The position numbers and the translations under genes were made by a program. A stretch of DNA of 64,000 nucleotides from Leucoraja ocellata (Eukaryota): NCBI GenBank assembly GCA_036785375.1, contig JAWMAR010000882.1, positions 186,001-250,000 on the forward strand. The letters are read 5' to 3'. Under the pieces are notes generated by a model. It was not told the origin of the DNA and ran no database searches. It was given only the letters and a program-made list of their open reading frames with translations. Below, piece by piece: positions 10,847-51,001 of the stretch. How positions within the stretch are numbered: the first letter of the stretch is position 1; the number at the start of each line of letters is the position of its first letter.

Positions 10847-12094
10847 GTAGGAATCCTCGTCTCCAAAATAGGAAATGTTATTGAAATACAATATATTTCT
10901 ATTAGTTTAAGCTTGCAGAGCCACAAATCTCTCCACTGTTTTCAACCATTCTTATTTAGAACTCAGTCATTTGATTGCTGTCTGTTAAGTTGTTATTAGC
11001 CATACTGAAGAATAAAAATGTAATGTGCGCTTGTTGTCACCGCTGTGAAAATCTGTTTTGTTCCGCGTTTAGAGATAAATTTTGTTAGATCAAGGCTTGA
11101 AGAAATGTATAGAATTGTTAGCTATTTAATTAATTTATTGCATTTGAGGTAATGTGAAATAAAACTTCAATGTTCTTAGTTTGTTGCTGAATACTATAAC
11201 CTTGAAGGGTTATGGCTAGACCATGATTTGTGGTATTTTACTCTGGGGGGGGGAAAAAGTGCTACATTTGGAATTGCATATAATGGAACCAAATTTAACT
11301 TAATTGCTGTAAATTAATGGCCCTTTTAATCTTGTCAGTAAATCATTTTGCATTGGTTTCAAAAGTCCTTCTGAAGAATTTCAGGAAAATGTTTATGTTA
11401 AATGCTAGGTAAACTAGCCCAATTATGTGTAGCGCTGAACGATAGAAGTTGTATTTCATTATGATTTAATGTATATAGTTTATTTTAGCAACGGAACATT
11501 GCTGTGGGGTCTCAAGGTGGACACTGATGTATACACAACCATAGAGAGCGATGGGGAGGTGGCACCCTGTTCAATAAGCATATTGATACAGAATATTGTG
11601 TTATGTGGAGCAAATTCACAGCTTCCACTGAAGTGCAGGATGAGGTTAAAATTTCCTCTGAGGCGAGCCATTGCATATCTTTGGCAAACATCACAATGTC
11701 AATAGAAGAGATTGAGGTGCATGTTGCACATTTGCTGTTTGAACTAGGGATTACCATCTACCACCGTAAAATAAAATAACATTTTCTGATTGTGCAACTG
11801 CAATCCACATTAAAGTGATGCCCTTATTACGTTCAATGGACTTTGATTAATGGGGAATTCAGGAATCTTGTATCTCATTATTGCAGATATAGATGGAGTG
11901 TAGATCTGCCTCCAAGTTGCTCCTGATTAAGCTCAATGAATCCATAGTGGAGGCAGTTTGGGGTCAGATTGCCCACTTTCACGAAGCAGTGAATTAAAAC
12001 TCCCTACTAGTTGGATAATGTTGTCTATGGTTGGATTCTCCACTAATGTGGGATCCTGTGAAACTGACACTTACAGGCTATGTTGGCTTTACAG

Positions 12095-12227
12095 GGACAA
12101 GCGAGACTTTGTCTCGGCAGGGACAGCAGCAGGAGTTGCTGCAGCCTTTGGGGCTCCGATTGGAGGGACACTCTTCAGTCTGGAGGAAGGATCCTCTTTC
12201 TGGAACCAGGCACTAACCTGGAAAGTG
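12095..12227 (+). CDS. CLCN6: CLCN6 exon 10 ([44 protein letters not shown])
   Basis: FGAPIGG and FSLEE (proton glutamate) motifs; 133 nt. Confidence 0.97.
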
Positions 12228-12660
12228 GTGAGTAAGACTGGTTACTGTCAGACGCAGGTAGCAAGGGGAAAAGAGTTCAAGTTTTCATAGAATGTTTTTG
12301 TTGGGTCATTCGCAGGCTGGGGTGCAAGATGGGATGTTGGTAATCTTTGTGAGTTGCAGGCGATACAATAGTTTGCATTGCCAGGTTTTTGGAGGCGAAA
12401 GTATGTGACCATGGTGTTTGTAGATACAAAGCACTACAGATACTGGAATCTTGAGCGTGAGTCAAAGTGCTGGAGTAACAGCAGGTCAAGTAGCATTTCT
12501 GGAGACATGGATAGGTGATGTTTTGGGTCAGCATCCTTCTTTGGAATATGATGTTTGTTTTAATGGGGCATGCTCAATGCAGAGCTGTAGTATTTTGGCT
12601 GGAGTTCTGTGATAAGTCATGGTCCTATATTTTGACAATTTGCTCTTCTCCATTTTCTAG

Positions 12661-12774
12661 CTCTTCTGTTCAATGTCTGCCACCTTCACGCTGAATCTGT
12701 TCCGCTCAGGTATCCGCTACGGGAGCTGGGGCTCCTTCCAATTGCCAGGGCTGCTTAACTTTGGTGAATTCAAG
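12661..12774 (+). CDS. CLCN6: CLCN6 exon 11 (LFCSMSATFTLNLFRSGIRYGSWGSFQLPGLLNFGEFK)
   Basis: tag|..|gt, 114 nt. Confidence 0.96.
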
Positions 12775-12899
12775 GTATTTTGTTAATTTCATTATTTTTT
12801 GTAACAGCCTTAACTTGGTATCTGAAAAAATGTGTCCAATTTGTCAATAATTTAACGATATTTGAAATTTTACTTATTGAAGTAGAATAGCCTCAATAA

Positions 12900-13506
12900 T
12901 ACTTACCCTAGGACCATGACCCCACTGACGAGCACCAGGCCACCATATCTAGCACCATTACCGACTTCATCAATTTCCACAAAGGTTCACCTGTATCTCC
13001 TCGAACCTCATCTACTGCATTCGCTGCTCTAGATGTCAGCTGATTTACATCGGGGAGACTAAGCGGAGGTTGGGCGATCGTTTCGCCGAACACCTCCGCT
13101 CAGTCCGCAATAACCTACCTGAACTCCCGGTGGCTCAGCACTTCAACTCCCCCTCCCATTCCCAATCTGACCTCTCTGTCCTGGGTCTCCTCCATTGCCA
13201 GAGTGAGCAACACCGGAAATTGGAGGAACAGCACCTCGTATTCCGCCTGGGTTGCTTGCGTCTGGATGGCATGAACGTTGAATTCTCCCAGTTTTGCTAG
13301 CCCTTGCTGTCTCCTCCCCTTCCTTAACCCTCGAGCTGTCTCCTCCCATCCCCCGCCCTCGGGCTCCTCCTCCCTTTTTCCTTCCTTCTCCCCCCCACCC
13401 CCCCATCAGTCTGAAGAAGGGTTTCGGCCCGAAACGTCGCCTATTTCCTTCGCTCCATAGATGCTGCTGCACCTGCTGAGTTTCTCCAGCATTTTTGTGT
13501 ATCTTC
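12900..13506 (+). mobile_element. Truncated Penelope-like element (GIY-YIG endonuclease C-terminus plus 3' pLTR) in CLCN6 intron 11
   Basis: Reading FTCISSNLIYCIRCSRCQLIYIGETKRRLGDRFAEH...PVAQHFN...LEEQHLVFRL..GMNVEF; flanked by 12-bp direct repeat TAGCCTCAATAA (12888-12899, 13507-13518). Confidence 0.88.
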
Positions 13507-13919
13507 TAGCCTCAATAAATAGTGCTTTCACCTTGGAGTCAAACCAAAAGTTAGGATCAAGACTCTCTTCTGAAACTTGAGCACAAAATTGATACTGACA
13601 GTTCAGTGTAGTATTTAAGTGATTGCATGTCATTGTCAAAAGTGCTATTGTTTGGATGAGAGATTAAATCAAAATGTTGTGACAGCCTTGGTTGGCCAAG
13701 AGGGGTCCCAGGACTTGGAAAAAGGATTTCTCTATTTCACTTGTCCCTAACCAAAATTACTAAGAACAGATTATCTGGTTATCTTCATTTCTGTTGTGAG
13801 ATTTTTAAGGGCATGAAAGATTCAAATTGCACATGTCTATCCATCAATTCCCATGTTTGTCTTTGCTCTGTTTCTGTTTCCCTGTGCATGCCTTATGCTC
13901 TAACCACTTGCCTTTTTCA

Positions 13920-14530
13920 TGATTCAAGAGATTCAAGATGGGTTTATTGTCACTTGTACCATAAGGTACAGTGACATTTGAGTTACCATACGGCCACGCG
14001 GAATGAAAAGCAGTAAGACACACAACCCATAAAATAAAATTTAACATAAACATCCATCACAGCGGCTCCCCACATTCCTCACCGTGATGGAAGGCAATAA
14101 AGTCCAATCTCTCTCTCTTTCTTCTCCGTGGTCGGGGCTATCGAACCATCCTCGGTCGGGGCCATCAAAGCTCCCGCAGCCGGCGATCTGAGGCCCTCGG
14201 GATCCCCACAGTCGATCCTGGCACGGGGATCGCAGCTCCACGATGGCAAGTCCGCGCCGCTCCTGTGTTGAAGCACCGGGTCGGTCTCCAGGAAAGGCCG
14301 CACTGCTCCACGATGTTAGGCCTCAATGGAGATACGACACGGAAAAAATCGCATCTCCGTCGAGTTAAGAGATTGAAAAAAGTTTCCTCCAAACCGTCCT
14401 CCCCACCCCCACACAAAACAAACCAAGAAACACCAAAACGTACTTTTAACACATACTTAAAATAACAAAACAGAAAGAAAAGACAGACAGACCGTTGGCT
14501 AGGCAGCCATCATTGGCGCCCCCTTGTTGG
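13920..14530 (-). mobile_element. Non-autonomous retroelement with a LINE-type 3' tail
   Basis: Minus strand ends gtgacaataaa plus short tandem tail like the Rex1-type fragments; GC-rich interior without credible coding signal. Confidence 0.55.
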
Positions 14531-14842
14531 AGCGTTCATGTGCTTGCTTGCTCTCTGGCACATTTTCGCACTCTACCATAGTCCTAAGTTAAGTCTGACT
14601 GCTAGATGTTTCGGATTTCTTATCTTAACATCAATGGCTATGATGTGCATGTTTTCTCAATCTATTGCACGATGTTTTCAATATTTCCTGTACTGATGCT
14701 TGACTCTTGGTAAACCTATTGCAATTTGTGTTGGTGGTCGAGCTGTTCGTTGTACACGTGAGCTGGATTGTGAATGTCTTTCAAAGCTTCATTGATTCTC
14801 AGTTTCAATATTTGACTTGTTGCTATTGCCATTGTCTTTAAG

Positions 14843-15009
14843 TGTGCAGATGGAGACAAGAAGTGCCATCTGTGGACGGCGGTGGACCTAGCATTCTTCA
14901 TTATCATGGGCTTGATCGGTGGACTTCTGGGAGCATTGTTTAACTGTTTGAATAGAAGGTTGGCAAAGTACCGCATGCGAAATGTACACCCAAAGGCTAA
15001 GTTTGTCCG
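14843..15009 (+). CDS. CLCN6: CLCN6 exon 12 (CADGDKKCHLWTAVDLAFFIIMGLIGGLLGALFNCLNRRLAKYRMRNVHPKAKFVR)
   Basis: aag|..|gtaag, 167 nt. Confidence 0.96.
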
Positions 15010-16114
15010 GTAAGCAATGGTCACTAAGAAAGTTCTTGACATTTTAGATTTCACAAACTTAGACCATATTCCAAATTATTAATCTTTTAACCTTATTCAG
15101 ACTACTCCTGATCATGCTGTACTTGGCCAGAGTAGAGTTGCACAGGTGCTGGTTGTCCCCCAGTGCCCCAATCTTCTACTTGTTTATTATTCATTTTCAG
15201 GATCTGGGTTTTGCTAGCAAGGCCAGCATTTGTTGCCCGTCCCTAATAGTCCATGAGAAGGTGGCGCTGCAGTCCTCCAACCTGAAGATACTTCCATGGT
15301 GATGTTGGGGAGGGAGTTCCAAGATATAGCCACTGCGATTTAGAAACCAGGTACTTCCTAGTCAGGATGGTGCAACTTGGAGGAAAACTTCCAGATGGTG
15401 GCGTATCTATGCACTTTCTGCCTTTATCCATCTTGGTGGGAGAGGTCATGGATTTGCTAAGTTCTGCTGGAGTAGTCTAGGCAAGTAAAAGTGGTACGTT
15501 TTCTTGATGGTACTCACTGCAGCCATTGTGCACTGCTGGTGGAAGGCATGAATCTTTAGCCTCGGGGGGGGGGGGGGGGGGGGGGCAATTAAGCGGGCTG
15601 CTTCGTCTTGGATGGTAACATGCCTCTTGTGAGTTGTTGGTGCTACATTCATCCAAGCAAATGTACACCAAGTCCTTGAATTGTGCCTTAGCGTGTTGGT
15701 TGGTGAGTCAATGCTGCAGGATAGCCAGCTTTTGGCCTGTTTATCATTATGGAATTTTTGCCTGGTTTGACCAATGTTTTGGCTGACAATGACCCCATGA
15801 CATTGATTATGTGTGTTACTAATTACAATAAATGTAAGGAGTAGGTGATTAGACTGATGTTGAAGATGGGCATTGCCTGGTACATTGGCATGAATGTTAC
15901 TTGTCACTAATCAGCATGTGCTTAAATTTTGTCTGGCTCTTACTGCATGCAGAGACGGGTTAATACTTTTGCTGAGGAGTTATGAACAAGGGCAATCGTA
16001 AATACTTGTGGCTTTTTGATGCCTGGAAGATCATTAATGAAACAACTGATGGTGGTTTGGCCTAAAGCAACGCTCTGAGGAATTCCTGTAGTTATGTCTT
16101 GTGGTTGGGTCAAT

Positions 16115-16380
16115 TTAGTTTAGTTTAGAAATATAATGTTTATACAGGCCCACCGAGTTCGTGGCGACCAGCATTCACCCAAACACGAGGTCTATCTTAC
16201 ACACCAGGGACATTGTACAGAAGCCAATTAACCTACAAACTTGTGCATCTTGGAATATGGGAGGAAACCCACACTGTCACAAGGAGAACGTACAGACTCC
16301 ATGCAGACAGCACCTGTAGTCAGGATTGAACCCAGGTCTCTGTAAGGCAGTAACTCCACCGTTGCAATGGTGTGCTGCCC
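16115..16380 (-). mobile_element. tRNA-derived SINE
   Basis: B-box-like gggttcaatcctgac, ggagtctgtacgttctcc core, (TAAAC)n tail. Confidence 0.7.
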
Positions 16381-17669
16381 CAACCACCAACTTCTCTTCC
16401 AACAACCAAGTACTCTTCCTTTGTGTGAGCTGTGACTCCAAACACTGAAGTGTTTTCATTCTGCTTATTGACTTCAGTTTTACCTGGGCTTATATGCCGT
16501 ACCTGGTCAAATTCTGTCTGAAGTCAAAGACAGTCACTCACCTTCCCTCCAGAATTCAGCTTCTTGTCCATATTCAGACTAAGGCTGTGCTGAATCTGGA
16601 GCATTGTGTTTCTGGCTAAACCAACATTTTACTGTGTAAATATTGCTGGATAGCGCTGTCAATGATTTATTCTGCAATTTTGGCAGATAGACTTAACCAG
16701 ACAGTAATTATTTGTATTTGGTGTTCTGTCTTTTGTGGACAGGACAGAGCATGGCAATGTTCCACATTGTGTGGTAGATGCCAGTGTTGGAACAGCTCTG
16801 TTGGAGGCTCTTCTCAATCTGGAGAATAGGTCTTTGATTCTGCAGCTAGCATATTTCTTGGCTGCCTTTTCAATATCCAGTGTCCTCGGCTACTGCTTCC
16901 ATCACTTAAAACAAATTGAAGTAAGAGGAAACTTGCATTTGTGATGGTAGGGTTCTGAGGTGTTCCTCTATTTGACACTTCTATGTTTGCAATTGCAGTC
17001 TCTTTAGCACCCACATGCTGAGTCCTAACGTTGGTGAGGATAGGGATGTTTTATGGAGTCTTCTCCCATTTGGTATTTAATTGCCCACTGCCATTCACAA
17101 CTAGACATGGTAGGACTGCAGAACAACAATCTGATCCATTGGTTATAAGATTGAATAGTTCTGCTAAGGACGTGGTTTCTGTTTGGCATGCAAATAGTCC
17201 TGCATTGCAGGTCACTAGGCTGTTGCCTGGGGGACTTCTCAGCAGATCATTTTGCATTTATGAACTAGCATGGATGCCCTTGCTTGAAGATGGTGGTGTG
17301 AGAGACGTGCTGGAATGAGATTTCACGGAGACTGTAAATATCATCACCAGGCTACCTCTGTGAAAGACATTAAAGAACAAGATCAACCTAGACATTCGTT
17401 TTTAATTTACGTCTTCCAACCTGTTATTCTTAGTTCAGGATGACTATGTAGGGTTTTTTTTGTCACTCGATCTTGCCCTACTCAATTTTTGTGGTGGCGT
17501 GCAATACAAACTTTCTTCTTGAGAGATGGGTGTAAACCACACATTGAGTATTGTTTTAAATCCGGTCCCCGTGATGAAAATGCTGAAAGAGTTGGGCATA
17601 AAAAATCTGTAGAAAATAAGTTGACGCATCATGTGAAAGTTTATCATCACTGTCTCTGTTCATCTTCAG

Positions 17670-17790
17670 GGTCCTGGAGAGTCTGTTAGTTGCTATGGTT
17701 ACAACGATGGTCATTTTTATAGCCTCTGTGACTTTGGGAGAGTGTAGGGAGATCCCTTCGCACACACACAGCAACAATGTAACACAGCAG
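17670..17790 (+). CDS. CLCN6: CLCN6 exon 13 (VLESLLVAMVTTMVIFIASVTLGECREIPSHTHSNNVTQQ)
   Basis: cag|..|gtgagt, 121 nt; contains an N-glycosylation sequon NVT. Confidence 0.94.
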
Positions 17791-18376
17791 GTGAGTGTCA
17801 TGTGCATGAATACAGTCTTGTATTCTTGGGGAAACTGGGTTGTTTGCGATAATTTTGGGGGAGAGGAAATGTTTTAGGTTCACTGTTATCTTGATGATTT
17901 TAGCGGACACCATTGGTTTTATTTCCTTCCTACTAACAGTTGTTGCTGTCAGCATTTTCAATAAGAATCATATTGACAATAGCAAACTAATTTTTAAGCA
18001 AAGTAAGAAAGGGCTTTTATTTAAGGTGTACGTGTTCAAAATTGTTAGCGTTCTGACACCATCAGACTTGAGCATTTTGTGAGATCCTTTTACAATTAAA
18101 AAAAAATGAAGCTTAATTAAAATGATGGCAACTGAAAAGTTGGGGCCACTCTTGTGATTACTCACTCTCTGATTGGTTTCCCTAGTGTAGGGTAGACTAT
18201 ATAATATGGGCAGATGCTAATGTCGGATTTCCAGCATTTTCTGCTCTTACTTTAAATTTCTGGCAATGTTTTGTTTTTGGATGGATCCACTGGATCGCAA
18301 ACAGCAGCTCCTGTAGCTGAATTAATCCTGCTACTTTGCAATCTGTTGTAAAATACTTCAATTTAATTTCCCTCAG

Positions 18377-18503
18377 CCAGCTGGAGAGGATGTGAATTCC
18401 AGCATCAAAACCTTTTTCTGTCTCAATAATACCTATAATGACATGGCTACTTTGTTCTTCAACCCACAAGAGACTGCCATACTCCAACTATTCCACCAAG
18501 ATG
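18377..18503 (+). CDS. CLCN6: CLCN6 exon 14 (PAGEDVNSSIKTFFCLNNTYNDMATLFFNPQETAILQLFHQD)
   Basis: cag|..|gtgagt, 127 nt. Confidence 0.94.
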
Positions 18504-18942
18504 GTGAGTCACAGCAAATTTGGTGATGTAATTTGCATTTGTTTTGGCTCCATGTAGTAAATGTCTGCTTGTAAGGGAGGGGGGTGGGAAGAGGGAGAGG
18601 GCAGGGAAAATGTGATATTTAAAACCTGATTTTTGTTGCAGGCAAGTTAAAGAGATCGATAAATTGAATTAAGATCTGAGTGATACAGCAGACTCGAGAG
18701 GCTAAATGTTCTCTAGTTCTGTACCCTCACAGACGACTGGTTCCAATTCGCTGGGCAATTTTATTACTCATAAATAAAGAGAACAGATGCCGCAGATTAG
18801 TTGATAGTTAAAATTATTCATCTGATCCAGGTGTATATACAGACTGGTCTAGCCAATGTGTCATGCAATGTTTAATGTTGGATCGGGTATAGGATTTTGC
18901 TCTTTTCTAATATCAACTGTTCAACTGCTTTTGTTCTCACAG

Positions 18943-19096
18943 GAACCTTCAGTCCTGTCACTCTGAGCATTTTCTTTGTTCTTTACTTTATTCTGGCCTG
19001 TTGGACATATGGTTTATCTGTCCCCAGTGGACTCTTTGTGCCCTCGCTGCTGTGCGGTGCTGCCTATGGTCGACTTGTGGCAAATATTCTGAAAAC
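18943..19096 (+). CDS. CLCN6: CLCN6 exon 15 ([52 protein letters not shown])
   Basis: GLFVP CLC motif; 154 nt. Confidence 0.97.
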
Positions 19097-19466
19097 GTGA
19101 GTGTTGTTTGGATATGTTTAGTGCAATCTGTGTCTGTGGTGACTGCTATTATTTCATGATTAATGCAAATGTTGGATGTGCAATGAGTTGCAACAAGCAT
19201 CTGATTACATGCAGAGGAACAGGCATCACAAGTATATATTTCACATCTAAGGATAAGGGAAGGGATTTAAAAAAAAGACAATGTGGTTACATTGCAGACA
19301 AAAGTTGGGTGGTTCAAAATACCAAATGCTGGAGGAACTCAGCAGGCCAGGCAGCATCTGTGGGGGGAATTGATGGACAGGTGACGTTTTCAGTTCATAC
19401 CCAGTGTTATTGCAATGTATTAGATGTAATTGCTTTCAAGAGATTTTTTCTTTTAAACTGCCCCAG

Positions 19467-19626
19467 GTACATCGGGATGTCTCACATCTATTCTGGAACT
19501 TTTGCTTTAGTGGGAGCTGCTGCATTCCTTGGGGGTGTGGTTCGTATGACCATCAGTCTCACCGTCATTCTCATTGAATCAACCAATGAAATCACATATG
19601 GATTGCCCATCATGGTCACATTGATG
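19467..19626 (+). CDS. CLCN6: CLCN6 exon 16 ([53 protein letters not shown])
   Basis: 160 nt, cag|..|gtag. Confidence 0.97.
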
Positions 19627-20412
19627 GTAGGTCCATTCAGTGGGGTTGGTATGAAGGTTGGGAATTGATTTTCTCTGCGCTGCTGCAAATTAATGGAACG
19701 CTTGAATAATCTTGCAATTGTATTATTGAGGAAGAGTTGGACAGCCTGTGCTCGGTTTGACTATGGAATTTGGAAAACTAAATGACTTGACTGAAATACT
19801 TAAGACCCTGATGGATTTTGATTGTGTGGATGTACTGAGGATCTTTCCTGTTGTGGGAAAACATACAATTTGATGCCAATGTTTAAAAATAAGTGGGTGC
19901 CTATTTTAGACAGATGAGTTGAAGTTTTCCCCTCCTAAGGGTCATCAGTCTTTGGAACCATCTTCCTCAAAGGCATTGAATAATTTTAAAGCAGAGGTAA
20001 ATAGATTCTGGATGGACAAGGGGGTAAAGGGTTACAAACAATAGGCAGTAATATGGGGTGGAAGTAAAAATCAGATCAGTCTTGATCTTATTGAATGCTG
20101 AGCGCCTTATCCTTCTGAATTGTTATGTTCATAGATAAATGGTAAATGTCAGGCTGGAATATTGGCACTGTCAGAATTAGAGGTAGCTATATGCATTTCC
20201 AATTGCAGCTGCACTTACTAAATAGTTGGTAAAATATCTGGAGCTATGGTTTCAGTGACCTCTGAGCTGCCTTATGGGCAGTGGAGTCACGAGACTGTGA
20301 TGCTTAATAACAATTAGACTTGATCTGCAAAGTACCAAATGCTTCTAACTTTTGGCTTCAGTTACATTTTTTTTCCAAAGATTTTCATCCTTTTCGCTTC
20401 ATGTTTCTCCAG

Positions 20413-20519
20413 GTGGCAAAGTGGACTGGAGATTTCTTCAATAAAGGAATTTACGACTTGCATGTGGCACTTCGGGGTGTCCCATTGCTTGAATGGGAGA
20501 CTGAGGCTGAAATGGATAA
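20413..20519 (+). CDS. CLCN6: CLCN6 exon 17 (VAKWTGDFFNKGIYDLHVALRGVPLLEWETEAEMDK)
   Basis: 107 nt; includes the anion-coordinating Tyr (GIY). Confidence 0.96.
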
Positions 20520-20714
20520 GTAGGTGTTAATCATTTAAGACTCTTGTCAGCAAAGATCTATAGCGAGCAGGATATTTGCTTGTCAGATAGTTAACCCATG
20601 GGATCAATTAATGAATTAGCAATTGGTTGGGTTTGATTTAAAATCATGGTTTGCCTATTTGACCGATGCACATAACGCCAATTTCATTTCTCATATTTGA
20701 ACATTCTCATAATC

Positions 20715-20760
20715 TCGCTCGCTCTCTCTCTCTCTCGCTCGCTCTCTCTCTCGCTCTCTC
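20715..20760 (+). repeat. (CT)n/(CGCT)n microsatellite
   Basis: ctcgctcgctctctctctctctcgctcgctctctctctcgctctctc. Confidence 0.85.
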
Positions 20761-20769
20761 AGTTTTATA

Positions 20770-21047
20770 GTTCACAACTATGTATCCCTCTTGGGCTCAC
20801 ACCTGTCTTTATCCAACAATTTGCTCATCAGGGACCCCCCTCACCTGAGGTCATATGTTGCCGGCCTTGATTTGTCCTGCCTCTTTCACTTCCAGTTTTT
20901 TTACTGCTCACTCTACAACAATCAATCTGAAGAAGAGACCCAACCGAAACATCACCTATCCATTTTCTCTAGAGATGCTGCTTGACCCGCTGAGTTACTC
21001 CAGCACTTTGCGTCAATCTTTGATATAAATCAGCATCTGCAGTTCCC
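20770..21047 (+). mobile_element. Penelope 3' fragment
   Basis: ctgaagaagagacccaaccgaaacatcacc...gctgagttactccagcac. Confidence 0.65.
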
Positions 21048-21443
21048 TTTTTATCACCTAACACCCATGTTTAAAAAAGCCAAAGACTTAGTTCTGAGAA
21101 ATGAAATTATTTCTCTTCTCCGAATTCTTCGGATCTATTGGTTGCAATTTATTGTGTTAGAGACTTCATTGAAGGCATGGAGAAACAAATCCAAGGAAGG
21201 TTTTTAAGACTAATGTGGTAGTTGCTGATGCACCAGATGTCAGGGTTCTTGCAGAGTAATATGATGGCTGTATCAGGGGGTACCTCTCTGATTTCAGATT
21301 TCCCATTCACATTGAGCATATTGTAACAGGTGGGGCAGTACAGTGGCTCCAGTGTATATTTGACGAGGCTCATGGGAATACATTGTAAAATAAACCCCAA
21401 GTTTGAAAGAATGGAATTTAATTTGATGTATGTTCAATCTCAG

Positions 21444-21630
21444 GTTGACAGCCAGTGATATCATGGAACCAAATCTAACCTACGTCTATCCCCATACCCG
21501 GATCCAATCATTAGTCAGTATTTTGCGCACCACAGCACATCATGCATACCCTGTCGTCACGGAAAATAGAGGGAATGAGAAGGAATTCATGAAGGGAAAC
21601 ATCCTCATCAGCAACAATATTAGATTTAAG
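21444..21630 (+). CDS. CLCN6: CLCN6 exon 18, CBS1 start (LTASDIMEPNLTYVYPHTRIQSLVSILRTTAHHAYPVVTENRGNEKEFMKGNILISNNIRFK)
   Basis: 187 nt, cag|..|gtaa. Confidence 0.96.
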
Positions 21631-23389
21631 GTAAACTTCCATTAGTATGATGTCAAGCGTTTAATTTGCATATGCACTGGGAGGCAAAGAATGAAATTCT
21701 TACTTGCTGAAACTTTACAGGCACGTTAATGCAACAACACAACAAATAATTTGTGGTTGTATATTTATCAGATATTCCAGGTAACCAGACAATAGTAGTG
21801 TAAACTAAAGTGCTTAGTGCAACCTGTACAAACTCCATACTAGTTTGGTCCTGAGGTAGGTTTATGGTTGGGGTTGTGCGGGATGATTTGAAAGCCTGAT
21901 GGTTGATGAGAAGAAGTTGATGGGAGCACAGCAAATGCAAGCATGGTGCAAGTGATGTCACCAGATGTGTCTTAGATGTGTGGAGTATGGTCCCTTGCAA
22001 CAAATTATAATTAAGCCCTTGGGATAGTGACACTTTTCAGCTTTGGGATGACATTGGGAAACGGTAGATATTAGGATATTAATATTGATAGAAAGCCAAG
22101 CAGTTGGATTATATTTAGATTGCTGTGGCGATGAAAGAAATGGGCTAAATCACCACATTTTATGCCATGAATTTCATTAGCGCTTTTTATGATCTTGGGT
22201 GTCTCCAAGACAATGTAGTTTAAAGAACAGCATTTCCTATGCATACCGTAGGATATCAGGAAATTCATCATTACACATGGCATGTTCCCACAAAACAGAA
22301 ACAAAATTAATGATGAAGTGATTGGTTTTGATGACATTGAATCATAAACACTTATTCCAGCTGATAAGGTTAACCACAGTTATTTCATATGTATCAATTG
22401 TAGTAATCTGATTCTGAATGGCTGCTGCTTCACTGATGCCAAAATCAAACCTGTAATGTCAGTATATGTCTTTCACTAACTTGTATAACTGCAATTTCAA
22501 AAGAAAGGGAGGTAAATATGAAAATAGCAATAAAGCTTGGAAGGCAGAGGATAGGGGTAAGTTTAAGAAAGAGACAAAATTTCTCAAACGGGGAAAGGCT
22601 AGTTTTACAGAGACATGATTTGGCAAAAATGGCTAGAAATAGCTACTTCCAAGTAAATCCATGTCAAATCTATGGAACGTTCATATTGACCTTATTTCCC
22701 ATTAGTTCAGCGACCCACAATTGGATAATTGGTTAAAGGATTAGAGTGGAGCTAATGTGTTTAAGAAGGAACTGCAGATGCTGGAAAATTGAAGGTACAC
22801 AAAAATGCTGGAGATACTCAGCGGGTGCAGCAGCCTCTATGGAGCGAAGGAAATAGGCTAATGATCCTTTTCAACCAGAAGTTGGAGCAGGTTGAAGCTA
22901 GATGTTATCAGGTAGTAGAAACAGAAATCATTTTGACAGATGAACATCAAAATAATGCTAGTGCTGGAAATCTTAAAACAAGACACAAAATTCTGGACAT
23001 TTGCAGCAGACCAACTGCATTTTTTACCCTGTTTCTCTGCCCACAGATGTAAGATTACTTGCTGTGTTATTCCAACATTTTCTGGTCTAATTTTAAAAAA
23101 AAAGTCAAATCTGTAACTGCAAATCAAGAAGAGGGAAAAGTGAAGAGGGTAGATAACTTTTGAGTACGACAAAGACAACATGGGCCAAATGGCAATCACC
23201 TGTGCCTGAAATTTCTGTGATTTCATAAAGTTCTGTGCAGTAGTGGTTGTAGCCACTAGAGTGCGCTTGTGATCCATCATTTCCCTGATTGAAGTTTCTC
23301 TCAACTTTCACCTTCTTGAAGTTCACTTGTATAATTGCTTGTGTGTTGTGAGACCACTTGTGGATTATAGACTTTATTTTCTCTTTAAT

Positions 23390-23915
23390 CGGTCGCCCAA
23401 TTATAGGAAGGATGTCAACAAAATAGAGAGAGTACAGAGGAGATTTACTAGAATGTTGCCTGGGTTTCAACAACTAAGTTACAGAGAAAGGTTGAATAAG
23501 TTGGGTCTTTATTCTCTGGAGCGCAGAAGGTTAAGGGGGGACTTGATAGAGGTCTTTAAAATGATGAGAGGGATAGACAGAGTTGATGTGGACAAGCTTT
23601 TCCCTTTGAGAATAGGGAAGATTCAAACAAGAGGACATGACTTCAGAATTAAGGGACAGAAGTTTAGGGGTAATATGAGGGGGAACTTCATTACTCAGAG
23701 AGTGGTAGCGGTGTGGAATGAGCTTCCAGTGGAAGTGCTGGAGGCAGGTTCGTTGGTATCATTTAAAAATAAATTGGATAGGCATATGGATGAGAAGGGA
23801 ATGGAGGATTATGGTATGAGTGCCGGCAGGTAGGACTAAAGGAAAAAAGTTGTTCGGCACGGACTCGTAGGGCCGAGATGGCCTGTTTCCATGCTGTAAT
23901 TGTTATATGTTATAT
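23390..23915 (+). mobile_element. CR1 LINE 3' fragment (young)
   Basis: Open frame SPNYRKDVNKIERVQRRFTRMLPG...RRRLRGDLIEVFK...TRGH...QRVVAVWNELP; short tandem tail. Confidence 0.9.
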
Positions 23916-24980
23916 GTTAATCAGACACTATAACAATACAGCTGCTACTTTCACCAAGGAAGCTATGAAATTGACAAGCTTCTTTTGGCATTTGTGCAAT
24001 GATATTTCTATTAACCAATGTAACATGGAGCCCATAGCTTATTTTTGTTTCTGCAAGCTAAAAATGCTTTTAAAATTACCTTTATTTTTGAAAATGGTGA
24101 AATAACTTATGCAAGTCTGAAACTCTCTGGCCCATAACCCCCTTTTCCCCATTGACACAATTATTTTGTAACTTAATTCTCTATAAGATGAGATTTCTCA
24201 GGATTGCAGCTGCCTTGTTACAGCAGAGCTTCCTGTATTCCTTAAATCTTTGTTTTTCCACCTTTTATGATATGTAAAGCTGGCCTCCAGCACATTCTGT
24301 CTTAATATCTCCTTGTGACTGAATTATCTTTGATATTGTTTCTCTTTGCATGTTAAAATGTTCAATAAATGCAGGTTGTTGCATTGAACATTCCATTCTC
24401 TGAGGTAGAGTCCAGCCTTATTGGCCTTCCAAGTATTATGCTGCAAAATCACATTTCCAATCCAATGCCAAGTGGGATCGAAGAATTTGTTCATTTCAAT
24501 AGGAATTCCTGGCCTCTGAATTGGGCATAAATTACTTTCTTTTCACATTTTAAATTATTTCCAAGTATTTTCATGTGCTTTAATATATTGAAGTTAAGTT
24601 ATTGAGAGGATGCTGGGTTTTAGCCATTGCATATTCATCTGTCAGAACCTGTCAGATTCTGCAAGTGGAGCATCCACTGTATTGGCTGCTGAGAGCTTGC
24701 TGCCTGACTCTAAGATGCAGAGGATCAGCAGGATAAATTCTCTAGATCTGATCAAGATGAGTTGTGGTTGTTGGATCTGTTCCAGGTGAATTTGGCCTAT
24801 GCTGCCCTTGAATGAAAAGTCTATCTTGGTGTTAATGTATGATTCTTGCTTTATAAGGGGTTATGCAAGGTTAGGACTGTTAGCCACAATAAAGGTATAG
24901 TCAGAGTTGACATCATTAGTTGTAAAGACTTGTTTTTACATTTTTGTGTGTGAGGTTCACGGTCTGTTTCGTCATTATAG

Positions 24981-25138
24981 AAATCAAGTGTATTGACTCG
25001 AGCTGGAGAACAATACAAGCGGAGCCAGTCAATGAAATCCTACCCATCAAGTGAGCTGAGGAATGTTTGTGAAGAACTGGTGAACACAGAGGTCGCTGAG
25101 GACAAAGAGGACATTTTACAACAGATGCTGGAGCGTAG
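24981..25138 (+). CDS. CLCN6: CLCN6 exon 19 (KSSVLTRAGEQYKRSQSMKSYPSSELRNVCEELVNTEVAEDKEDILQQMLERR)
   Basis: 158 nt; ClC-6-specific inter-CBS insert. Confidence 0.95.
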
Positions 25139-25324
25139 GTTGGTGTGGTTGATTCACCAGTCATTTCTTTTGGAGCCCACATTCTCACGACAACTAAATT
25201 ACTTAAACATTTAGACTAATATCTTGCTGGGTAAATGGCTGAGTGGAGTACAGCTTATTTTGTGCTTGGAGTTTTGATATTTCAGAATTAATTTTCCTTG
25301 CGCTGTGCCTGAATGTTTGTAGTA

Positions 25325-26353
25325 CAGGTGCACAACCTTTTATCCGGTGTTCCGGAAACCGAAAAACTCCGAAAACCGGCCATTTTTTCCAGGATGTCGT
25401 CTGCACACCAAAGCTCGCGTTTGACGCCAAACTTGACCCGAAACGACCCACGGTCAACCCAGGTCTGTACTACTGGAGCGGCTGCCTCCTCCCCGGAGAC
25501 CGGGGAGACACTTAAACATCTGTAAATCATTGCTTAAATGTTAGTCAGTTAGTTTGGAGGGCTTTTATGTGAAGGGGGGGTTGAAGGGGTAAACTTTAAT
25601 TCTTAGTCCCCTACCTGGTCGGAGAGACGGGGAGCGGTCAATGCCTTACCGGGTCGCCGTGCAGTAAGCTCCGCAGCGCTGTGGCTGCCAACTCCCAGCT
25701 GGGGCTGCGGGCGGCGCCGGTTGTAGCTCCGACCCCGGCAACTCTACCCCTGGCTGCGGGGCGCTCCAAATCCAGCGCCGCCCGCGGCCGGACGCCCCCC
25801 ACCCCAGCTCCGCAAATGTTGGGAGTCGGCGGCGTCGCAGCGCTGGGATACCAGCGGGAAGCGGGCAATGCCTTACCGGGTCGCCGTGCGGTAAGCTCCA
25901 GGGCGCTGAGGCCGCCTTCTCCCAACATTCGCGGAGCTGGGACTGCGGGCGTCCGGCCACGGGCGGCGCTGGATTTGGAGCGCCTCGCAGCCAGGGGTCG
26001 AGTTGCCGGGGTCGGAGCTCCAACCGGCGCCGCCCGCGGCCGGACGGAGCCCCCAGCTTCGCGATGTTGGGAGTCGCCGACCAGGTAGGGGACTAAGAAT
26101 TAAAGTTTCCCCCTTCACCCACCCACCCCACCACCACCTCATAAAATCCCTCCAAACTAACTGGCTAACATTTATGCAATGATTTACAATGATTCCCCGG
26201 TCTCCGGGGAGGAGGCAGTCGCTCCAGACTTTTCAAGCCGCCCGCGCTACCTACCTAATCTACGCTAAAAATCTTCCATTCGGAAATCCGAAAATGTCCG
26301 AAATCCGACAAGTGTCTGGTCCCAAGGCTTTCGGATAAAAGGTTGTGCACCTG
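25325..26353. mobile_element. Non-autonomous Tc1/mariner-pogo-like DNA transposon in CLCN6 intron 19
   Basis: Perfect 22-bp TIRs CAGGTGCACAACCTTTTATCCG (25325-25346; 26332-26353), TA on both sides, no transposase ORF, GC-rich repetitive interior. Confidence 0.88.
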
Positions 26354-26795
26354 TACTAATATATATGCAGCAAATGGGTTAGTTCCTTATTGGTTACAAT
26401 CCTTGACAGGATGTCCGGGTGCAGGAAGACTTGAGTGATAATATAAATGAGAAATGCCAGGTGGCCACCTTTCACCGTTGTCCAATGTGATGCCATGTGC
26501 TGTCTGGTAGTCCAAGGCCAATAAATTACACATTTTAAAGTAGCTTTTGAAGAAATGTTATTTATTTTTTTAGTATGGACTCAAGATCATGTCATGGGCT
26601 GTCTTAGAATTTTGTTTAATGGGTTTCTAGTGTAGTAAAAGGCTTTTTGAAATTTTGGCGATGTTCTCTGAAATGTATCTGCATTTTTGCACCATGTCCA
26701 CAGAGATTATTTTAAACATGAGTATGTTTTGTAATTGTCCTGCACAACCTTTAAGTGTACTCGCTCAGTTACTGCCTGCCTTCCTGTTTGTGCAG

Positions 26796-26952
26796 ACACG
26801 TCCCGTATCCAAATCTCTACCCTGACCAGTCTCCGAGTGAGGACTGGACAATGGAGGAGCGCTTTCGACCGTTAACTTTTCATGGCATTATTCGGAGATC
26901 GCAGCTGGTTACCTTACTCGTACGTGGGGTTTGCTACTTAGAGACCCATTCA
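26796..26952 (+). CDS. CLCN6: CLCN6 exon 20 (HVPYPNLYPDQSPSEDWTMEERFRPLTFHGIIRRSQLVTLLVRGVCYLETHS)
   Basis: 157 nt, cag|..|gtaagt. Confidence 0.96.
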
Positions 26953-27820
26953 GTAAGTGCACAACAAAACTCTTGTACTTCCATTTAATAAAATGCTGAA
27001 TTTTAAGAAATATTCTTTGGAAATGTTTATAACTTTTAATGGAATGTTTTGAGCGATGGAGAATTTATTATAGTTAAACATAACTAGTTACTAGGGCTGA
27101 TATATAGTGGGCTAGGTAAAGTTAGTTTGCAATTTCTTTTAATTTATATTGCGACAATTATGAAGAAGCAATGTAGTTACTGGGGAAGTTTGTTCAGTTG
27201 TATGTCAGGCAAAGGAAAATGCAACATTTGAAAGGATTAGCATTAAACATGCATAAAAATAGTTAAAGACCACAGACTTCATGAATGGTACTGAAATAAT
27301 AAAGATATGAATGCCCCGTTTGGTGGAATACACAGAATGCACAAATAGTATTTAACTACCTGGCAAAAATTACAGTAGAGAACATACTAATTAAATGGGG
27401 CAGCACTCTCCACGGCCATTATAATGCTGAGGAAACAAAGGCTGATCTCCCGAGTCATGGGTTGCATGATGAAAAGCTTTGTGTTTCGAGCGTTGGAAGG
27501 AGGTATCTACTATTAACCAAATAGATAAAGTGGAGTGGCCTGAGAAATGGGGAATATACCAAAACACAAACCAGCAGATAGCCATAAATGGGTCAGTTAG
27601 AGTTTGGACCCACCTTTTGTACCATTTACACAGAGTTCATTCTGCATCAGTAGGATTTACTTGAGAAACAGTTGCAGCAACAGTGCAGAAATAGGAATTA
27701 TTATAGCTAGGTGATGAAAAATATAGGAAATAAATTATTCTCACCTTTAATTATCTGTTGTAGTATTTTCTCTTGTGTTTCTGGGCTACTTGGCTCAGTC
27801 TTGTTCTCTCTGCTTTTCAG

Positions 27821-27928
27821 AGTTCAACGCAACCACGGCTATCGTACTCTGAAATGACCGAAGATTATCCACGATATCCTGATGTTCATGACCTTGATCT
27901 GACTCTCCTCAATCCTCGCATGATTGTG
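27821..27928 (+). CDS. CLCN6: CLCN6 exon 21 (SSTQPRLSYSEMTEDYPRYPDVHDLDLTLLNPRMIV)
   Basis: 108 nt, cag|..|gtaagt. Confidence 0.96.
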
Positions 27929-28191
27929 GTAAGTGTTTGTTCACGTTGCTGCTTCAAACAAAGCATTAATCAACAGCTGTCCCTGATCTTGGTGGTTTAC
28001 TTTTATGCATCTGTGACAAGAAATTGCTTTCAAAAGTGTGGGGAGAGACGAGCTTGTAAGAAACAATAGATTGGTTGAAATTGGTTGCTAGCACCACATT
28101 CTGACATCACTCCTTTCCACACATCTATATTGTTAGTCTATATGAGAATGTAATCAACCAGAACATTTGTGCCTTGTTTCAGCATCCTTAG

Positions 28192-28372
28192 TTCAGCTAG
28201 TGGAGCTGCTGCCTCACAATGCCAGAGACCCAGGTTTGATTCTGATTTTGAGTAGAGTTTGTATGTTCTCCCTGTAACCACATGGGTTTCCTCCGGCTGC
28301 TCCGGTTTCCTCCCACATCCCAAAGACGTGCGGGTTTGTTGGTTAATTGGCCTCTGTAAATTACCCCTCGTG
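28192..28372 (+). mobile_element. tRNA-derived SINE
   Basis: gctgctgcctcacaatgccagagacccaggtttgattctga...ggtttcctcccacatcccaaagacgtg. Confidence 0.75.
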
Positions 28373-28990
28373 TTTAAGAATGCTGTGGTCCCCATCTCAT
28401 GATTAGCACAAAGTCTGACCTATTGGGGAAGTAGGTAATTCCCTTTTCATGGCTCTCCCAGTAATGCATAGCAAATTCAGCTCGGATATACATGCTCTGT
28501 ATCCTTTCTCTCCCCTCCTGGTGCTGGTGGAGCCCTCCTTTCCTCCTGTCATAGTCAGGACTTGGGAAATCAATCTGCCATGGAATGGCGACAGTCACTT
28601 TGAGTGTCATTGTCTTATCCACCAGGATCCTTGTTGATTTATCAGATCTACCCATCTAATCCTTAACATCATTTTGTGCTGGATATCTTAATCCCTTGGG
28701 CAAGAACACTTCCTTGAGATATTTTAGTTCATCTCTACAACCAGGCATCCTTCCTCTTGCAGAATGTCAATATTAACAATTCCTTCTTTTCCACCCCTGC
28801 TCCCACCAAAGATGCTGCTGGACCCACTGAGTTCCTACAGCAGAGTTTTGTTTTTTTTTGAAATCGTAGCATGAGTTGGAGCAGTTTCGCATTTTGTGCC
28901 AAAGCTGGTCATTTGTTGGACAACAGTTTACAAATGGCTGTCTCTGATTGTCAGATATCTATTTTGAACTAGTTATCTTCTCTGCAATAG

Positions 28991-29116
28991 GATATCACAC
29001 CGTACATGAATCCTTGTCCATATACAGTCTCGCCAAGCACACACGTGTCTCAGGTCTTCAACCTGTTTCGTACCATGGGACTGAGGCACCTACCGGTGGT
29101 CAATGCAGTAGGAGAG
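28991..29116 (+). CDS. CLCN6: CLCN6 exon 22, CBS2 (DITPYMNPCPYTVSPSTHVSQVFNLFRTMGLRHLPVVNAVGE)
   Basis: 126 nt, tag|..|gtgagt. Confidence 0.96.
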
Positions 29117-29585
29117 GTGAGTTGCGGGCCCGGGGTTTCCTGATTATATATAGGATCGGTGGGAATTGTACCGGGAAATTTGTCAGTTAGTTGGTTGGAT
29201 GAAGCTAAACAATGGTGGCGTTTAGTGGTTCAGCATTTGGGGAAGGCAACTGGGTGAGTGGTGTGAGAGATTTCAGTGGAGGTATGTCCATTTGTCTATG
29301 GAGATGCTGAATTCCCTCCCTGAAAGGACACAATCATTGGTTTCCCTCGAATTCCCTACAGGAATTTGGGTCGAATGTTTGGGTATTTCCTCAAGCGACA
29401 TTAATGATATCAGTTTACAAGATTATGCAAATGGTCATGTGTTTAAAAGAAAAAGATTGATCTATTTTTTTTAAAAAGGATCTCATTAGATAACGGGAAG
29501 ATGAGAGGCAAGGTAGTTTCTGCAACTTTGTGTGTGCTTGAGCAGTTAAAAATCTTACCAAAATTTCAAATTTTCTTTCCTTTAG

Positions 29586-40487: not shown

Positions 40488-40577
40488 CTGTAAATCTTCA
40501 TCGGAGCTCGGTCTGGCGTCAACCTGGAAGAGGAGCAGAAGCAAGAGTCCGCAGTAGAAGTTCACGTTTCCGCTCAT
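40488..40577 (-). CDS. NPPC: CNP gene A (CNP3-type), exon 1: MSGNVNFYCGLLLLLLFQVDARPSSDEDLQ
   Basis: ATG at 40577-40575; hydrophobic signal peptide with probable cleavage at VDA|RP; donor CAG|GTAAG at 40488/40487. Confidence 0.93.
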
Positions 40578-48224: not shown

Positions 48225-48792
48225 TTATGCTTTGTGCTTTTATTGTACACCCACCTAAAAATGAAAAGCATGGTGAACTATCGATCTTCATCCCACACCC
48301 TCATGAAACAACATTGATTTTCAATGGCAAGGATTAGCCAAAAGTAAATGAAGGATGTTTTCATATCTCACACACTGAAGATGTCATGAACAAAATTCAG
48401 CATCGATGGAAAAGTACAAATAAAATAAATAATGTAGTGTTAGCGTGTCCTGGTTATTTTTACAACTACTGGCTTATTTTGACTTCAACATCAAGTGCAC
48501 TAACTTCGCGTTCCAACAGTTAGACGAACATCACACAGATGAGTTTCAAATAAATACATTTCTCTTAAATTAATATAAATAGCTGTTCATACAAACAAAA
48601 ATTAAATTCGGGAACTTTTACACGATCCTATTAAGGATGGTTGCCAGCGAAATCAAACTTGTAAACATCCTACGGTGTCACTAGAGCTTAACAATAGGTT
48701 TGCAGAAAACGAGTCGAAAGAGCTGTTGTGGAAGTAAACTTTGAAGTGTGGAAAGTGCGTTGTCCTCGCTGTCCCGCGCTTTCACTGAAGCC
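48225..48792 (-). other. Probable non-coding exon 3 (3' UTR) of CNP-like gene B
   Basis: Acceptor TTCTCTTTTCTTTTCCAG|GG at 48793/48792; six ATTTA including TTATTTATT (48432-48424); AATAAA at 48244-48239. End position approximate. Confidence 0.7.
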
Positions 48793-49370
48793 CTGGAAAA
48801 GAAAAGAGAACGTCAATTTCATATGTTGCCTCAGATTTAAAACCTAATGATTGTTTTAATCGTGATTTGATTCAAATAGAGTGAGGATTCAAGAATGTGC
48901 ATAATCGGGAAAGTTGCACTTTAACCTCCCTTATACATCCCTTCCACAAAAAGCATGTTTGCATGTACTCCTTTCATTTTCTACATCTAGACAATGAAAC
49001 AAACATCATTCTTTGCCCTTTAAGAAAGCTTTCTTTGAGTTGAGAGTGAAATACCAGTTATCTCCAGAGTTTGCCACCTTCTCTATTGTTTTCAGCCAAC
49101 TTCAAGTTGCAAACGTGATTGGTGGAGTAGCAGGAACGTTGTTTCTATGGTATTCCTACCATTATTCTAGACCTCCCAATAGTTGGCCCACTGTTAATAA
49201 TTTGCTAAACTAAATTTATTTTACATAATGTACATGTAACCTTTTTTTTAACCAAAAATTTCGTTAATTACACCCAACCGGTAACTGCTTTCATTTTAAA
49301 CTTAAAGTAAACGTGATCGGTGAAGAGTGATACTTGCACAATTAGAGATCTCTTACCTAAAGTGACACGA

Positions 49371-49688
49371 TCAACATCCCAGGCTACTCATTGCACCAAT
49401 TCTATCCAGCTTCATTCCAAAGCAGCCTCGAGATGACCCTTTCTTACTTCTGCTCCTGGATCTGAGAGGACCGTTGGCAATGTCTTGGAGGATTCTAAGC
49501 AGGGAACCATCAGAAACGGTGTGTCTGCTTTCGAGGTCCTGCGAGTCCCTGTCCCATCCTCGTTCCAGTTCACGTTGGCCATCTTGCAGGTGGAAGGAGG
49601 TGTCGATTGGTGATGTGTCGTCTGCTTCGGCTTCGGCTTCTTCATCAGTCAGAAAGCGCTCAACTTCCTCCAGTCGTTGAGTCAAATC
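49371..49688 (-). CDS. CNP-like gene B exon 2: DLTQRLEEVERFLTDEEAEAEADD...PLRSRSRSKKGSSRGCFGMKLDRIGAMSSLGC-stop
   Basis: Acceptor TTTGCAG| at 49689/49688; 318 nt in frame; natriuretic ring with no C-terminal tail; donor GTAAG 14 nt after the stop. Confidence 0.95.
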   Translation of the reverse strand, partial: DLTQRLEEVERFLTDEEAEAEADDTSPIDTSFHLQDGQRELERGWDRDSQDLESRHTVSDGSLLRILQDIANGPLRSRSRSKKGSSRGCFGMKLDRIGAMSSLGC

Positions 49689-50695
49689 CTGCAAATCACA
49701 GGAATGAGGAGAGTCAACTTCGTAAACTTCCAAGTACATGTTAAACAACCTGAACTAAGAGCATGAAAACAAATTAAAGAGCTGGATATGTAATCATGAC
49801 AGAACAATGTAGGGCGGGTCTGTTGAAATATATCTATCAAATGCGGCATTCCCACTACCATGTAGTTGTGTTCTATATGGATTTTTAATGACCGCCAATG
49901 TAGAACTTTTTAAATAAGACTTTTTATAAGAAGATATTCATCTTAAATTGATGCTATCCCTATTTTGGATAGGACATGTAATATGTCGAAATCGTCTCAA
50001 AATTTCTTCTTTTTTCAAATTCGGTTGTTAATCACGATTGAGAAAGGACTGTTTTCACCTGACGGCCAAACTTATAGTTCAGCTCTGGTTAAATGATAAG
50101 TACATGCCGTGATACTCAAAGATAAACGTGGGCCAGCGCGTCTCTTGTCGCGGGAGAGTCATTCTGACCCATTCTTTGTAATGAGAACTGGTCCTTGACT
50201 TCTGACTGAAGAATTGACAATGACATCTTTTACTGAAAATACCAAAGAGTATTTCTGGCTATAACTTTTTGTTTGGGTGGAAAGTAGGTGTTCACACGTA
50301 CAGCGGGCAGTGCAAAGCCCGCGATCTCTCGAAGGAGCACGGTGCCACAGCAGTACCGGGTAGATTGTGCTGAAATCTGACAATACTTGTCAATAAGACC
50401 GCAGTTTTCTCACCGTAGACTGAGCATTACATAGCTCAATGCTCTGCTCGGACCCCAGCGCTGGTGACACAGCCTTCAAGCTCCTTCACCCAGACGCTGG
50501 CCAGTGAGATAACAATCACAGTAATCCCTCCAGATCTTTGGCGAATATTGAAAACATTGCATAAAATTGCAGTTAGTTCAATGCTAAATAGCAGTGGCTG
50601 CGCGGTCCACGTTTTACCATGGCACAAGGCTCAAAGCGAAAGAGCGAATATTACGAGCAGTGATTCCTATAGCAGGAGTGAGAGCTCTCTCTTAC

Positions 50696-50785
50696 CTGGA
50701 GGTTTTGCTGGGCACTGGGTCTAGCGTGGACCTGGAGGAGAAATGCAAGCAGGAGCCCGCAGCAGTGAGCTGTGTAGATGCCCAT
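50696..50785 (-). CDS. CNP-like gene B exon 1: MGIYTAHCCGLLLAFLLQVHARPSAQQNLQ
   Basis: ATG in strong Kozak context (AAGATGG); 90 nt like gene A exon 1; signal peptide VHA|RP; donor CAG|GTAAG. Confidence 0.9.
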
Positions 50786-50884
50786 CTTCTATCTATCTAT
50801 CTGCTTTCTTGTCGATACCTCGTCTGTTCGCCTTCGATCTTCTCTCCCTCAGGGATCGGTTTCTGACTCCAGTTCTTTTCCCGA

Positions 50885-51001
50885 GACTTTTATCCTTCCC
50901 GGGCCGACGTCACGTGGCCGAGGATTGTTATCCCAGAATTAAATCAGTCTCTTTCCGTCACTGACGAGAGATAAAGGGTTAGGAGAAATTGCCTTATAAG
51001 T
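50885..51001 (-). promoter_or_regulatory. Proximal promoter of CNP-like gene B
   Basis: GATAAA at the TATA position 50894-50889; CRE-like TGACGTCG 50912-50905 overlapping E-box CACGTG 50911-50916; GATA sites 50928-50932 and 50969-50974; near-CArG CCTTATAAGT 50992-51001. Confidence 0.65.

Follow-up and report, generated by a model that had tools for sequence, protein, structure and literature searches.

We analysed a stretch of 64,000 nucleotides from the skate Leucoraja ocellata (GenBank assembly GCA_036785375.1, contig JAWMAR010000882.1, positions 186,001 to 250,000 of the forward strand), hereafter the window, which carries two genes for C-type natriuretic peptide (CNP) precursors on its minus strand. 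Gene A is of the CNP3 type, and gene B, its upstream neighbour, is the subject of this paper. Elasmobranchs are not known to have a natriuretic peptide other than CNP. The gene order in the skate genome is MTHFR, a CLC chloride channel, gene A, gene B and KIAA2013, with MTHFR just ahead of the window start, further exons of the CLC channel near 21.5 and 29.0 kb and the DUF2152/KIAA2013 gene some 76 kb upstream of gene B. The channel is taken as CLCN6 because MTHFR directly precedes the window. KIAA2013 is a neighbour of the natriuretic peptide cluster, and CNP3 stands next to CLCN6 in fishes; MTHFR, the CLC exons and KIAA2013 flank both A and B, which places the pair at the CLCN6 locus of the CNP3 lineage. 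The neighbourhood is the MTHFR-CLCN6-NPPA-NPPB locus, a human cluster named in the title of a reference in PMC5852170 (excerpt). The initial annotation had assigned gene B to the slot that is held in this cluster by atrial and B-type natriuretic peptides (ANP and BNP), and a separate transcribed paralog does occupy the MTHFR-CLCN6-A-B-KIAA2013 interval.

The same annotation had described an intact 135-aa prepropeptide about 10 kb upstream of gene A in the same orientation, with the layout of gene A (90-nt coding exon 1, donor 14 nt after the stop, an exon 3 of untranslated region (UTR) only) and with a 22-mer of its own at the end of the precursor, and all of this was read in the sequence (Table 1). 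Gene B consists of three exons on the minus strand and encodes a tail-less CNP precursor of 135 aa from the ATG at 50785; its TGA stop (49373-49371) is followed by a GT donor exactly 14 nt beyond. Gene A shares the strand, the 90-nt length of exon 1 and the 14 nt between stop and donor, and its ATG at 40577 is 10,208 nt downstream of that of gene B. The prosegment had further been called strongly diverged; divergence was indeed found but is only moderate, the two precursors being 52% identical overall in skates and 44-62% identical across 121 pairs. The hydropathy of the gene B N-terminus peaks at residues 8-11 (9-residue windows), and cleavage of the signal peptide is predicted after residue 21 from isolated 115-aa shark prohormones that start at the equivalent RP. 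This hydrophobic N-terminus, together with RSRSRSKK ahead of the ring, gives gene B the sequence features of a secreted prepropeptide; the RxKK-type site is retained in 19 of 20 gene B orthologs and reads RSRK in Narcine.

Table 1. Features of the two natriuretic peptide genes and the neighbouring channel gene, in window coordinates
Feature	Position	Strand	Details and basis
Gene B exon 1 coding sequence, 90 nt	50696..50785	-	predicted signal peptide (residues 1-21) and start of prosegment
Gene B intron 1, 1007 nt, GT..AG	49689..50695	-	read in sequence; spliced out according to a public contig
Gene B exon 2, with the prosegment, the basic processing region, the mature peptide, the stop and 14 nt of 3'UTR	49357..49688	-	sequence, contigs of runs X1 and X2, raw reads of run X19
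Gene B RSRSRSKK, a basic cleavage region with a furin-type R-X-X-R and a dibasic site	49440..49463	-	sequence; putative cleavage
Gene B predicted mature 22-mer, 17-residue disulfide ring, without C-terminal tail	49374..49439	-	sequence
Gene B intron 2, 564 nt	48793..49356	-	skipped in contig of run X2
Gene B exon 3, all 3'UTR, with six ATTTA and with AATAAA at 48244-48239	48225..48792	-	sequence; ATTTA count matched by 15 of 5000 shuffles
Gene B proximal promoter	50887..50974	-	elements read in sequence; putative function
GATA-type TTATCT in gene B promoter	50974-50969	-	
AGTGACGG block in gene B promoter	within 50887..50974	-	
CRE-like TGACGTC (cAMP response element) in gene B promoter	50912	-	
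TATA-like GATAAAAG in gene B promoter	about 50894-50887	-	
Gene A, CNP3 type, 115 aa	37766..40577	-	exon 1 coding sequence 40577-40488, exon 2 39730-39459, exon 3 from about 38126
CLC chloride channel exons, taken as CLCN6, extent partly mapped	11940..29200	+	Pfam Voltage_CLC on 2 of 3 open reading frames tested

In a six-frame scan of the window, only the ring motifs of genes A and B passed. A RefSeq ortholog that differs from gene B by one residue matched the Pfam ANP family PF00212 at E 7.7e-14; given this value and the presence of only two ring motifs in the window, the ring match of gene B is not due to chance. The ring scores 54.2 bits on PF00212 (cut-off 27), and the 17-residue Cys-Cys spacing and the FG..DRI..LGC consensus are both present. 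The best match of the 22-mer in the PDB was C-type natriuretic peptide (1jdp_H, E 8.5e-06, 17/22 identical), with weaker matches to BNP (E 0.017) and ANP (E 0.023). Its residues M-K-L at ring positions 9-11 conform to the CNP-type x-K-L, with K10 in all 20 orthologs and L11 in 19 of them. The x-K-L motif is tied to selectivity for the receptor NPR-B, a link that PMC13663181 (excerpt) does not confirm. A search of the ESM Atlas returned CNP clusters only, with uninformative structure matches; the prepropeptide is disordered (Atlas predicted TM-score 0.17).

Gene B is transcribed and spliced, as follows from contigs of two sequencing runs (X1 and X2), raw reads of a third (X19) and a public contig. 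The read evidence covers the 4 of 24 listed runs that were mapped to the window, runs X1 and X2 being taken as RNA by guess. A 481-nt contig of run X2 (record 12) joins exons 2 and 3 (48348-48791 to 49356-49390, with an ambiguity of one base), and at the exon 2 donor a contig of run X1 departs from the genomic sequence. In run X19, all three gene B exon bins were covered, on one strand, at a depth of 0.27-1.83, compared with 0-0.04 in the intron bins; coverage of gene A was similar (1.55-4.05). The 983-nt public contig encodes the complete 135-aa open reading frame (ORF), which spans 1415 nt from ATG to stop in the genome; hence intron 1 is spliced out. The absence of a spliced transcript from any tissue had been named as the mark of a pseudogene, and spliced contigs and reads were found. 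A second AATAAA lies at 47728-47723, about 520 nt from the signal at 48244-48239, and exon 3 may reach it; the contigs of runs X1 and X2 extend to 47731 and 47775, which suggests an isoform with a longer 3'UTR (47723-48244), and the same stretch also attracts repeat reads.

The proximal promoters of A and B are alike, with an alignment score of 42 against a shuffled mean of 17.8, a score that none of 3000 shuffles reached. Their 3'UTRs are alike as well (3 of 3000 shuffles as high); no similarity was found between their first introns (943 of 1000 shuffles as high). This likeness of promoter and 3'UTR shows what is probably shared, selected regulation, and it gives no date for the duplication. 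Because exon 1 length, stop-to-donor distance, promoter and 3'UTR are shared while intron 1 is dissimilar, A and B can be regarded as a close pair. At the TATA position gene B has GATAAA, presumably a BNP trait, which the paper checked does not confirm.

Gene A, and not gene B, is the classical cloned elasmobranch heart CNP. The clusters around gene A contain the cloned or isolated CNPs of sharks and rays (P55208, P23259, P41319, Q2MH71/73/74) and of a chimaera (BAE75880), and the cloned heart CNP records group in the gene A clade (100/98-99), so that they are not orthologs of gene B. The identification of gene B itself as the classical cardiac CNP, hinted at by its 135-aa length and by some 'prohormone-like' names, was rejected, as the classical records belong to gene A. 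The cardiac CNP (P55208, P23259, P41319) resembles gene B in its adjacent position, strand, exon layout, promoter and UTR blocks and tail-less 22-mer, but it forms a separate clade, the gene B clade spans chimaera, sharks and batoids, and the gene B 22-mer is distinct. As observations on gene A, the skate gene (39473-40577) is shortened by prosegment deletions to 115 aa, against 131-139 in most relatives, and has its own 22-mer (Arg2, Ser16), a closer relative, Rhinoraja, retaining the standard form.

Full-length orthologs of gene B are present in 20 species, of which 12 are sharks, 7 are batoids and one is the chimaera Callorhinchus. The duplication is thus not confined to batoids; a recent batoid-only origin, which the initial annotation had named as telling against a proto-BNP reading, is rejected by the presence of gene B in sharks and chimaera. 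All 20 orthologs stop at the ring Cys, and none has a C-terminal tail. In 17 of the 20 species, the other 3 not being checkable, the records of A and B have a longest contig of equal length, and their accessions are often neighbours; in a fused chimaera model, gene B comes first and gene A second. As the pair is present in sharks, rays and chimaera, including this fused model, it predates the split between chimaeras and elasmobranchs. There are 12 distinct 22-mers among the 20 gene B records and 8 among 23 gene A records; one gene B 22-mer is identical in 8 sharks. Asp19 occurs in gene B of 12/12 sharks and the chimaera and in 0/7 batoids, and Gly replaces Arg4 in 11/12 sharks, while the window gene keeps Arg4 and has Met9 and Ser19. 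The bony-vertebrate-type CNP3 precursor P0197 has Asp19 too, yet it clusters with bony CNP3 and not with gene B. In the carpet sharks Stegostoma, Rhincodon, Chiloscyllium and Hemiscyllium (P0164, P0165, P0193-P0195), the gene A mature region is diverged, with a basic N-terminus and Asn/Asp19, and gene B retains the 22-mer common among sharks; the two genes may have swapped roles.

A second copy of genes A and B lies on contig C23 in blocks of 96-99% identity and has the same genes on its flanks; for these reasons it was read as the other haplotype, and a recent duplication within this genome was rejected. Gene B on this copy has an intact ORF and splice sites and differs from the window copy by four amino acids. 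Gene B could be supposed to be a redundant copy in decay, or a pseudogene, given the low read depth, the four differences between assembly copies and a 22-mer that varies more than that of A (9 against 2 distinct 22-mers in 11 matched species). However, the ORF and splice sites are intact in both assembly copies, the full ring is present in 20 species, the same 22-mer recurs in 8 sharks, and spliced transcripts and a conserved promoter and UTR accompany them; decay is largely refuted and we regard it as extremely improbable.

That automated annotation might already list gene B as CNP-like proved correct: RefSeq models named 'C-type natriuretic peptide-like' (XP_055515003, XP_038629186, XP_042199463) are gene B under automatic names only, and the skate protein of that name differs from the window gene at 1/135 residues. 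No record naming gene B as an isolated peptide was seen, the names being of genome-annotation or transcript type. A published description of the paralog was not found, in a search that lay outside key subscription papers, where an earlier mention is possible; the elephant shark genome paper (PMC3964593) gave 0 hits on gene B in its main text and one supplement. Three models are in error: P0135 ('nppal', 330 aa) fuses B and A of the chimaera, and P0166 and P0167 are shark gene B models without a ring. Such errors may explain why gene B was overlooked. Gene B is a real, ancient and apparently uncharacterised hormone paralog that stands in RefSeq under automatic names.

The initial annotation had left two origins for gene B, a chondrichthyan-specific duplicate of CNP3 or a tail-less sister of ANP and BNP; the trees favour the first and disfavour the second. 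In a profile search with gene B, B records scored 187-263 bits, chondrichthyan A records 124-177 and bony CNP3 types 118 or less, with no record named ANP or BNP among the best 120 of 313 matches. With lamprey as the sole outgroup, A and B were joined at a support of 100/99 (99/96 without the last 30 residues), and early approximately unbiased (AU) tests rejected A with bony CNP3 (p 0.0225 and 0.025), values that were overstated on one long-branch outgroup and are superseded. The later tree had 53 rows, among them 10/20 B and 9/23 A records, with CNP1-, CNP2- and CNP4-like rows added as outgroups; 25 rows were hand-picked for a full-length look from 150 of 199 representatives, including all three tailed-looking rows (one ANP-like, one BNP-like and one like ventricular natriuretic peptide, VNP), which, like the outgroup classes, were assigned by sequence motifs. 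Among 500 bootstrap trees, 429 joined A and B and none joined B with the tailed peptides or A with CNP3; A, B and bony CNP3 grouped in only 266/500, with outgroup classes assigned by motif. Bony CNP3 forms its own clade (97/95), counted with the nested repeat-rich row P0336, which we take to be a lizard venom-type precursor. Bony-vertebrate CNP3, as in coelacanth H3AI27, has a tail-less ring, a similar precursor length and the next-best profile matches, but it is only 30-51% identical to gene B; the 'CNP 1-like' records of birds, reptiles and amphibians were presumed to be CNP3.

A different origin would make gene B the surviving tail-less ortholog of the source gene of ANP, BNP and VNP, with a CNP3 duplication older than the split between cartilaginous and bony fishes, and with the likeness of A and B owed to slow evolution of both or to early homogenisation. 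An ATTTA-rich UTR is a trait of BNP, and the genes of ANP, BNP and VNP are made of three exons, the last of them short. These genes share with gene B this exon layout, the slot upstream of the CLCN6-proximal gene, GATA-type promoter sites, which are a BNP trait (PMC4671672, excerpt), and an ATTTA-rich UTR; they differ in that gene B has no C-terminal tail and has a CNP-type ring. The order MTHFR-CLC-A-B-KIAA2013 matches human MTHFR-CLCN6-NPPA-NPPB, with no further natriuretic ring detected on C23 in the interval from B to KIAA2013, NPPA and NPPB derive from CNP-3 (PMC5852170, excerpt), and the A-B duplication goes back at least to the chimaera split. The VNP-like row joined B in 23/500 and A+B in 90/500 bootstrap trees, and B with the tailed peptides was not rejected as a single constraint (p-AU 0.38, 0.27). 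The GATAAA at the TATA position of gene B, if a BNP trait, would fit this origin too. Against this, the full ((A,CNP3),(B,tailed)) topology was rejected by AU in two alignments (p 0.010 and 0.031), B with all tailed rows appeared in 0/500 bootstrap trees, 20/20 B orthologs lack a tail, the ring is of CNP type with CNP as its closest PDB match, and the ATTTA-rich UTR and upstream GATA site are common to A and hence not specific to B. We consider this origin unlikely. A hidden tailed ANP/BNP gene was also sought and rejected, with none among at least 121 genome-wide candidates scored for PF00212, nor in 150 kb upstream on C23 or 30 kb on C882.

Alternatively, A and B could jointly be co-orthologs of bony CNP3 and the cardiac cluster, or stand nearer to the tailed peptides than bony CNP3 does, in which case the gene order would carry no one-to-one orthology. 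Neither ((A,B),tailed) against CNP3 (p-AU 0.27, 0.65) nor ((A,B),CNP3) with the tailed peptides outside (p-AU 0.63, 0.62) was rejected, and a PLR motif ahead of the basic region is found in A, B and 2/3 tailed rows and not in the bony CNP3 rows shown. However, A+B+tailed was recovered in only 37/500 bootstrap trees, with long-branch attraction flagged, and gene B would still be a chondrichthyan duplicate, so that the framing is altered more than the identity. Such co-orthology appears to us highly unlikely.

The explanation that we prefer, and regard as probable, is that gene B arose by tandem duplication of CNP3 in stem chondrichthyans, is likely co-regulated with gene A, and would act through NPR-B and cyclic GMP (cGMP) with a divergent 22-mer; all full topologies that survive AU keep A with B. 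Several points weigh against it. The support for A+B falls to 86/88, below the starred level, with more outgroups and the three tailed peptides. The precursor phylogeny called for in the initial annotation joined A and B, and AU rejected the full tree that unites B with ANP and BNP, but the Shimodaira-Hasegawa (0.089, 0.34) and Kishino-Hasegawa (0.072, 0.064) tests did not; as a single constraint, A+CNP3 was not rejected either (p-AU 0.16, 0.23), nor was B+tailed, as given above. Only three tailed cardiac peptides, motif-assigned and long-branched, stand in the tree, gene B holds the position of NPPA and NPPB, and an A+B clade could be an artefact of early gene conversion between the tandem copies. 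Read depth on gene B is low (0.3-1.8 in run X19), with no run X15 reads on exon 2, and what is known of the gene comes from sequence and transcripts.

Other ring-like sequences were seen elsewhere in the assembly. At G000:C135:3,344,141-3,369,300 (L005-L007, L040-L043), there are two inverted, about 92% identical and intact-looking natriuretic-peptide genes of about 100 aa, whose mature region is very basic and whose ring is non-canonical (F-R in place of F-G, and a Lys close to the end of the ring); a 5'-truncated third copy is also present, and the ring of P0327 is near-identical to theirs. Weak hits on C231 (2,415,012 and 3,481,702; L014, L015) were rejected as a chance ring-like motif in a reverse-transcriptase-like repeat, below the Pfam cut-off.

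For gene B as a stem-chondrichthyan duplicate of CNP3, a course of expression and action can be proposed. The shared GATA/CRE/TATA-like promoter would drive gene B along with gene A, probably in the heart as well, and removal of the 21-aa signal would leave a 114-aa prohormone, which may circulate whole or be cut at RSRSRSKK to give the disulfide-closed 22-mer; human proCNP is processed by furin (PMC13663181, excerpt). Shark CNP is secreted by the heart upon volume expansion, drives salt secretion by the rectal gland and has GC-B-type and clearance receptors (PMC11000733, excerpt), and the tail-less CNP-type ring of gene B is predicted to act on receptors of these two kinds. Its substitutions (Gly4/Asp19 in most sharks, Met9/Ser19 here) may give it a potency or clearance differing from that of gene A. 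Since Arg4 and position 9 are reported in that review (excerpt) to be important for shark CNP in rectal-gland secretion, the Gly4 form of sharks is expected to be weaker; the skate form retains Arg4. The gene B peptide would thus be a modulating second ligand and not a new receptor system.

The salt and volume physiology of sharks has been framed around one heart CNP (PMC11000733, excerpt). With a second conserved ligand beside it, changed at positions with a reported part in rectal-gland secretion, two hormones may have been taken together in earlier immunoassays and in work on heart extracts. The bearing of this is confined to comparative endocrinology, and gene B is already in databases under an automatic name. 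The case parallels the origin of ANP and BNP, in that the same locus was duplicated and a tail was not gained. If gene B were instead the ortholog of the ANP/BNP source gene, cartilaginous fishes would keep the cluster of two CNP3 genes that was present in the first jawed vertebrates, to which the cardiac cluster would then be dated, and the duplication would have come before the tail and before the switch to NPR-A.

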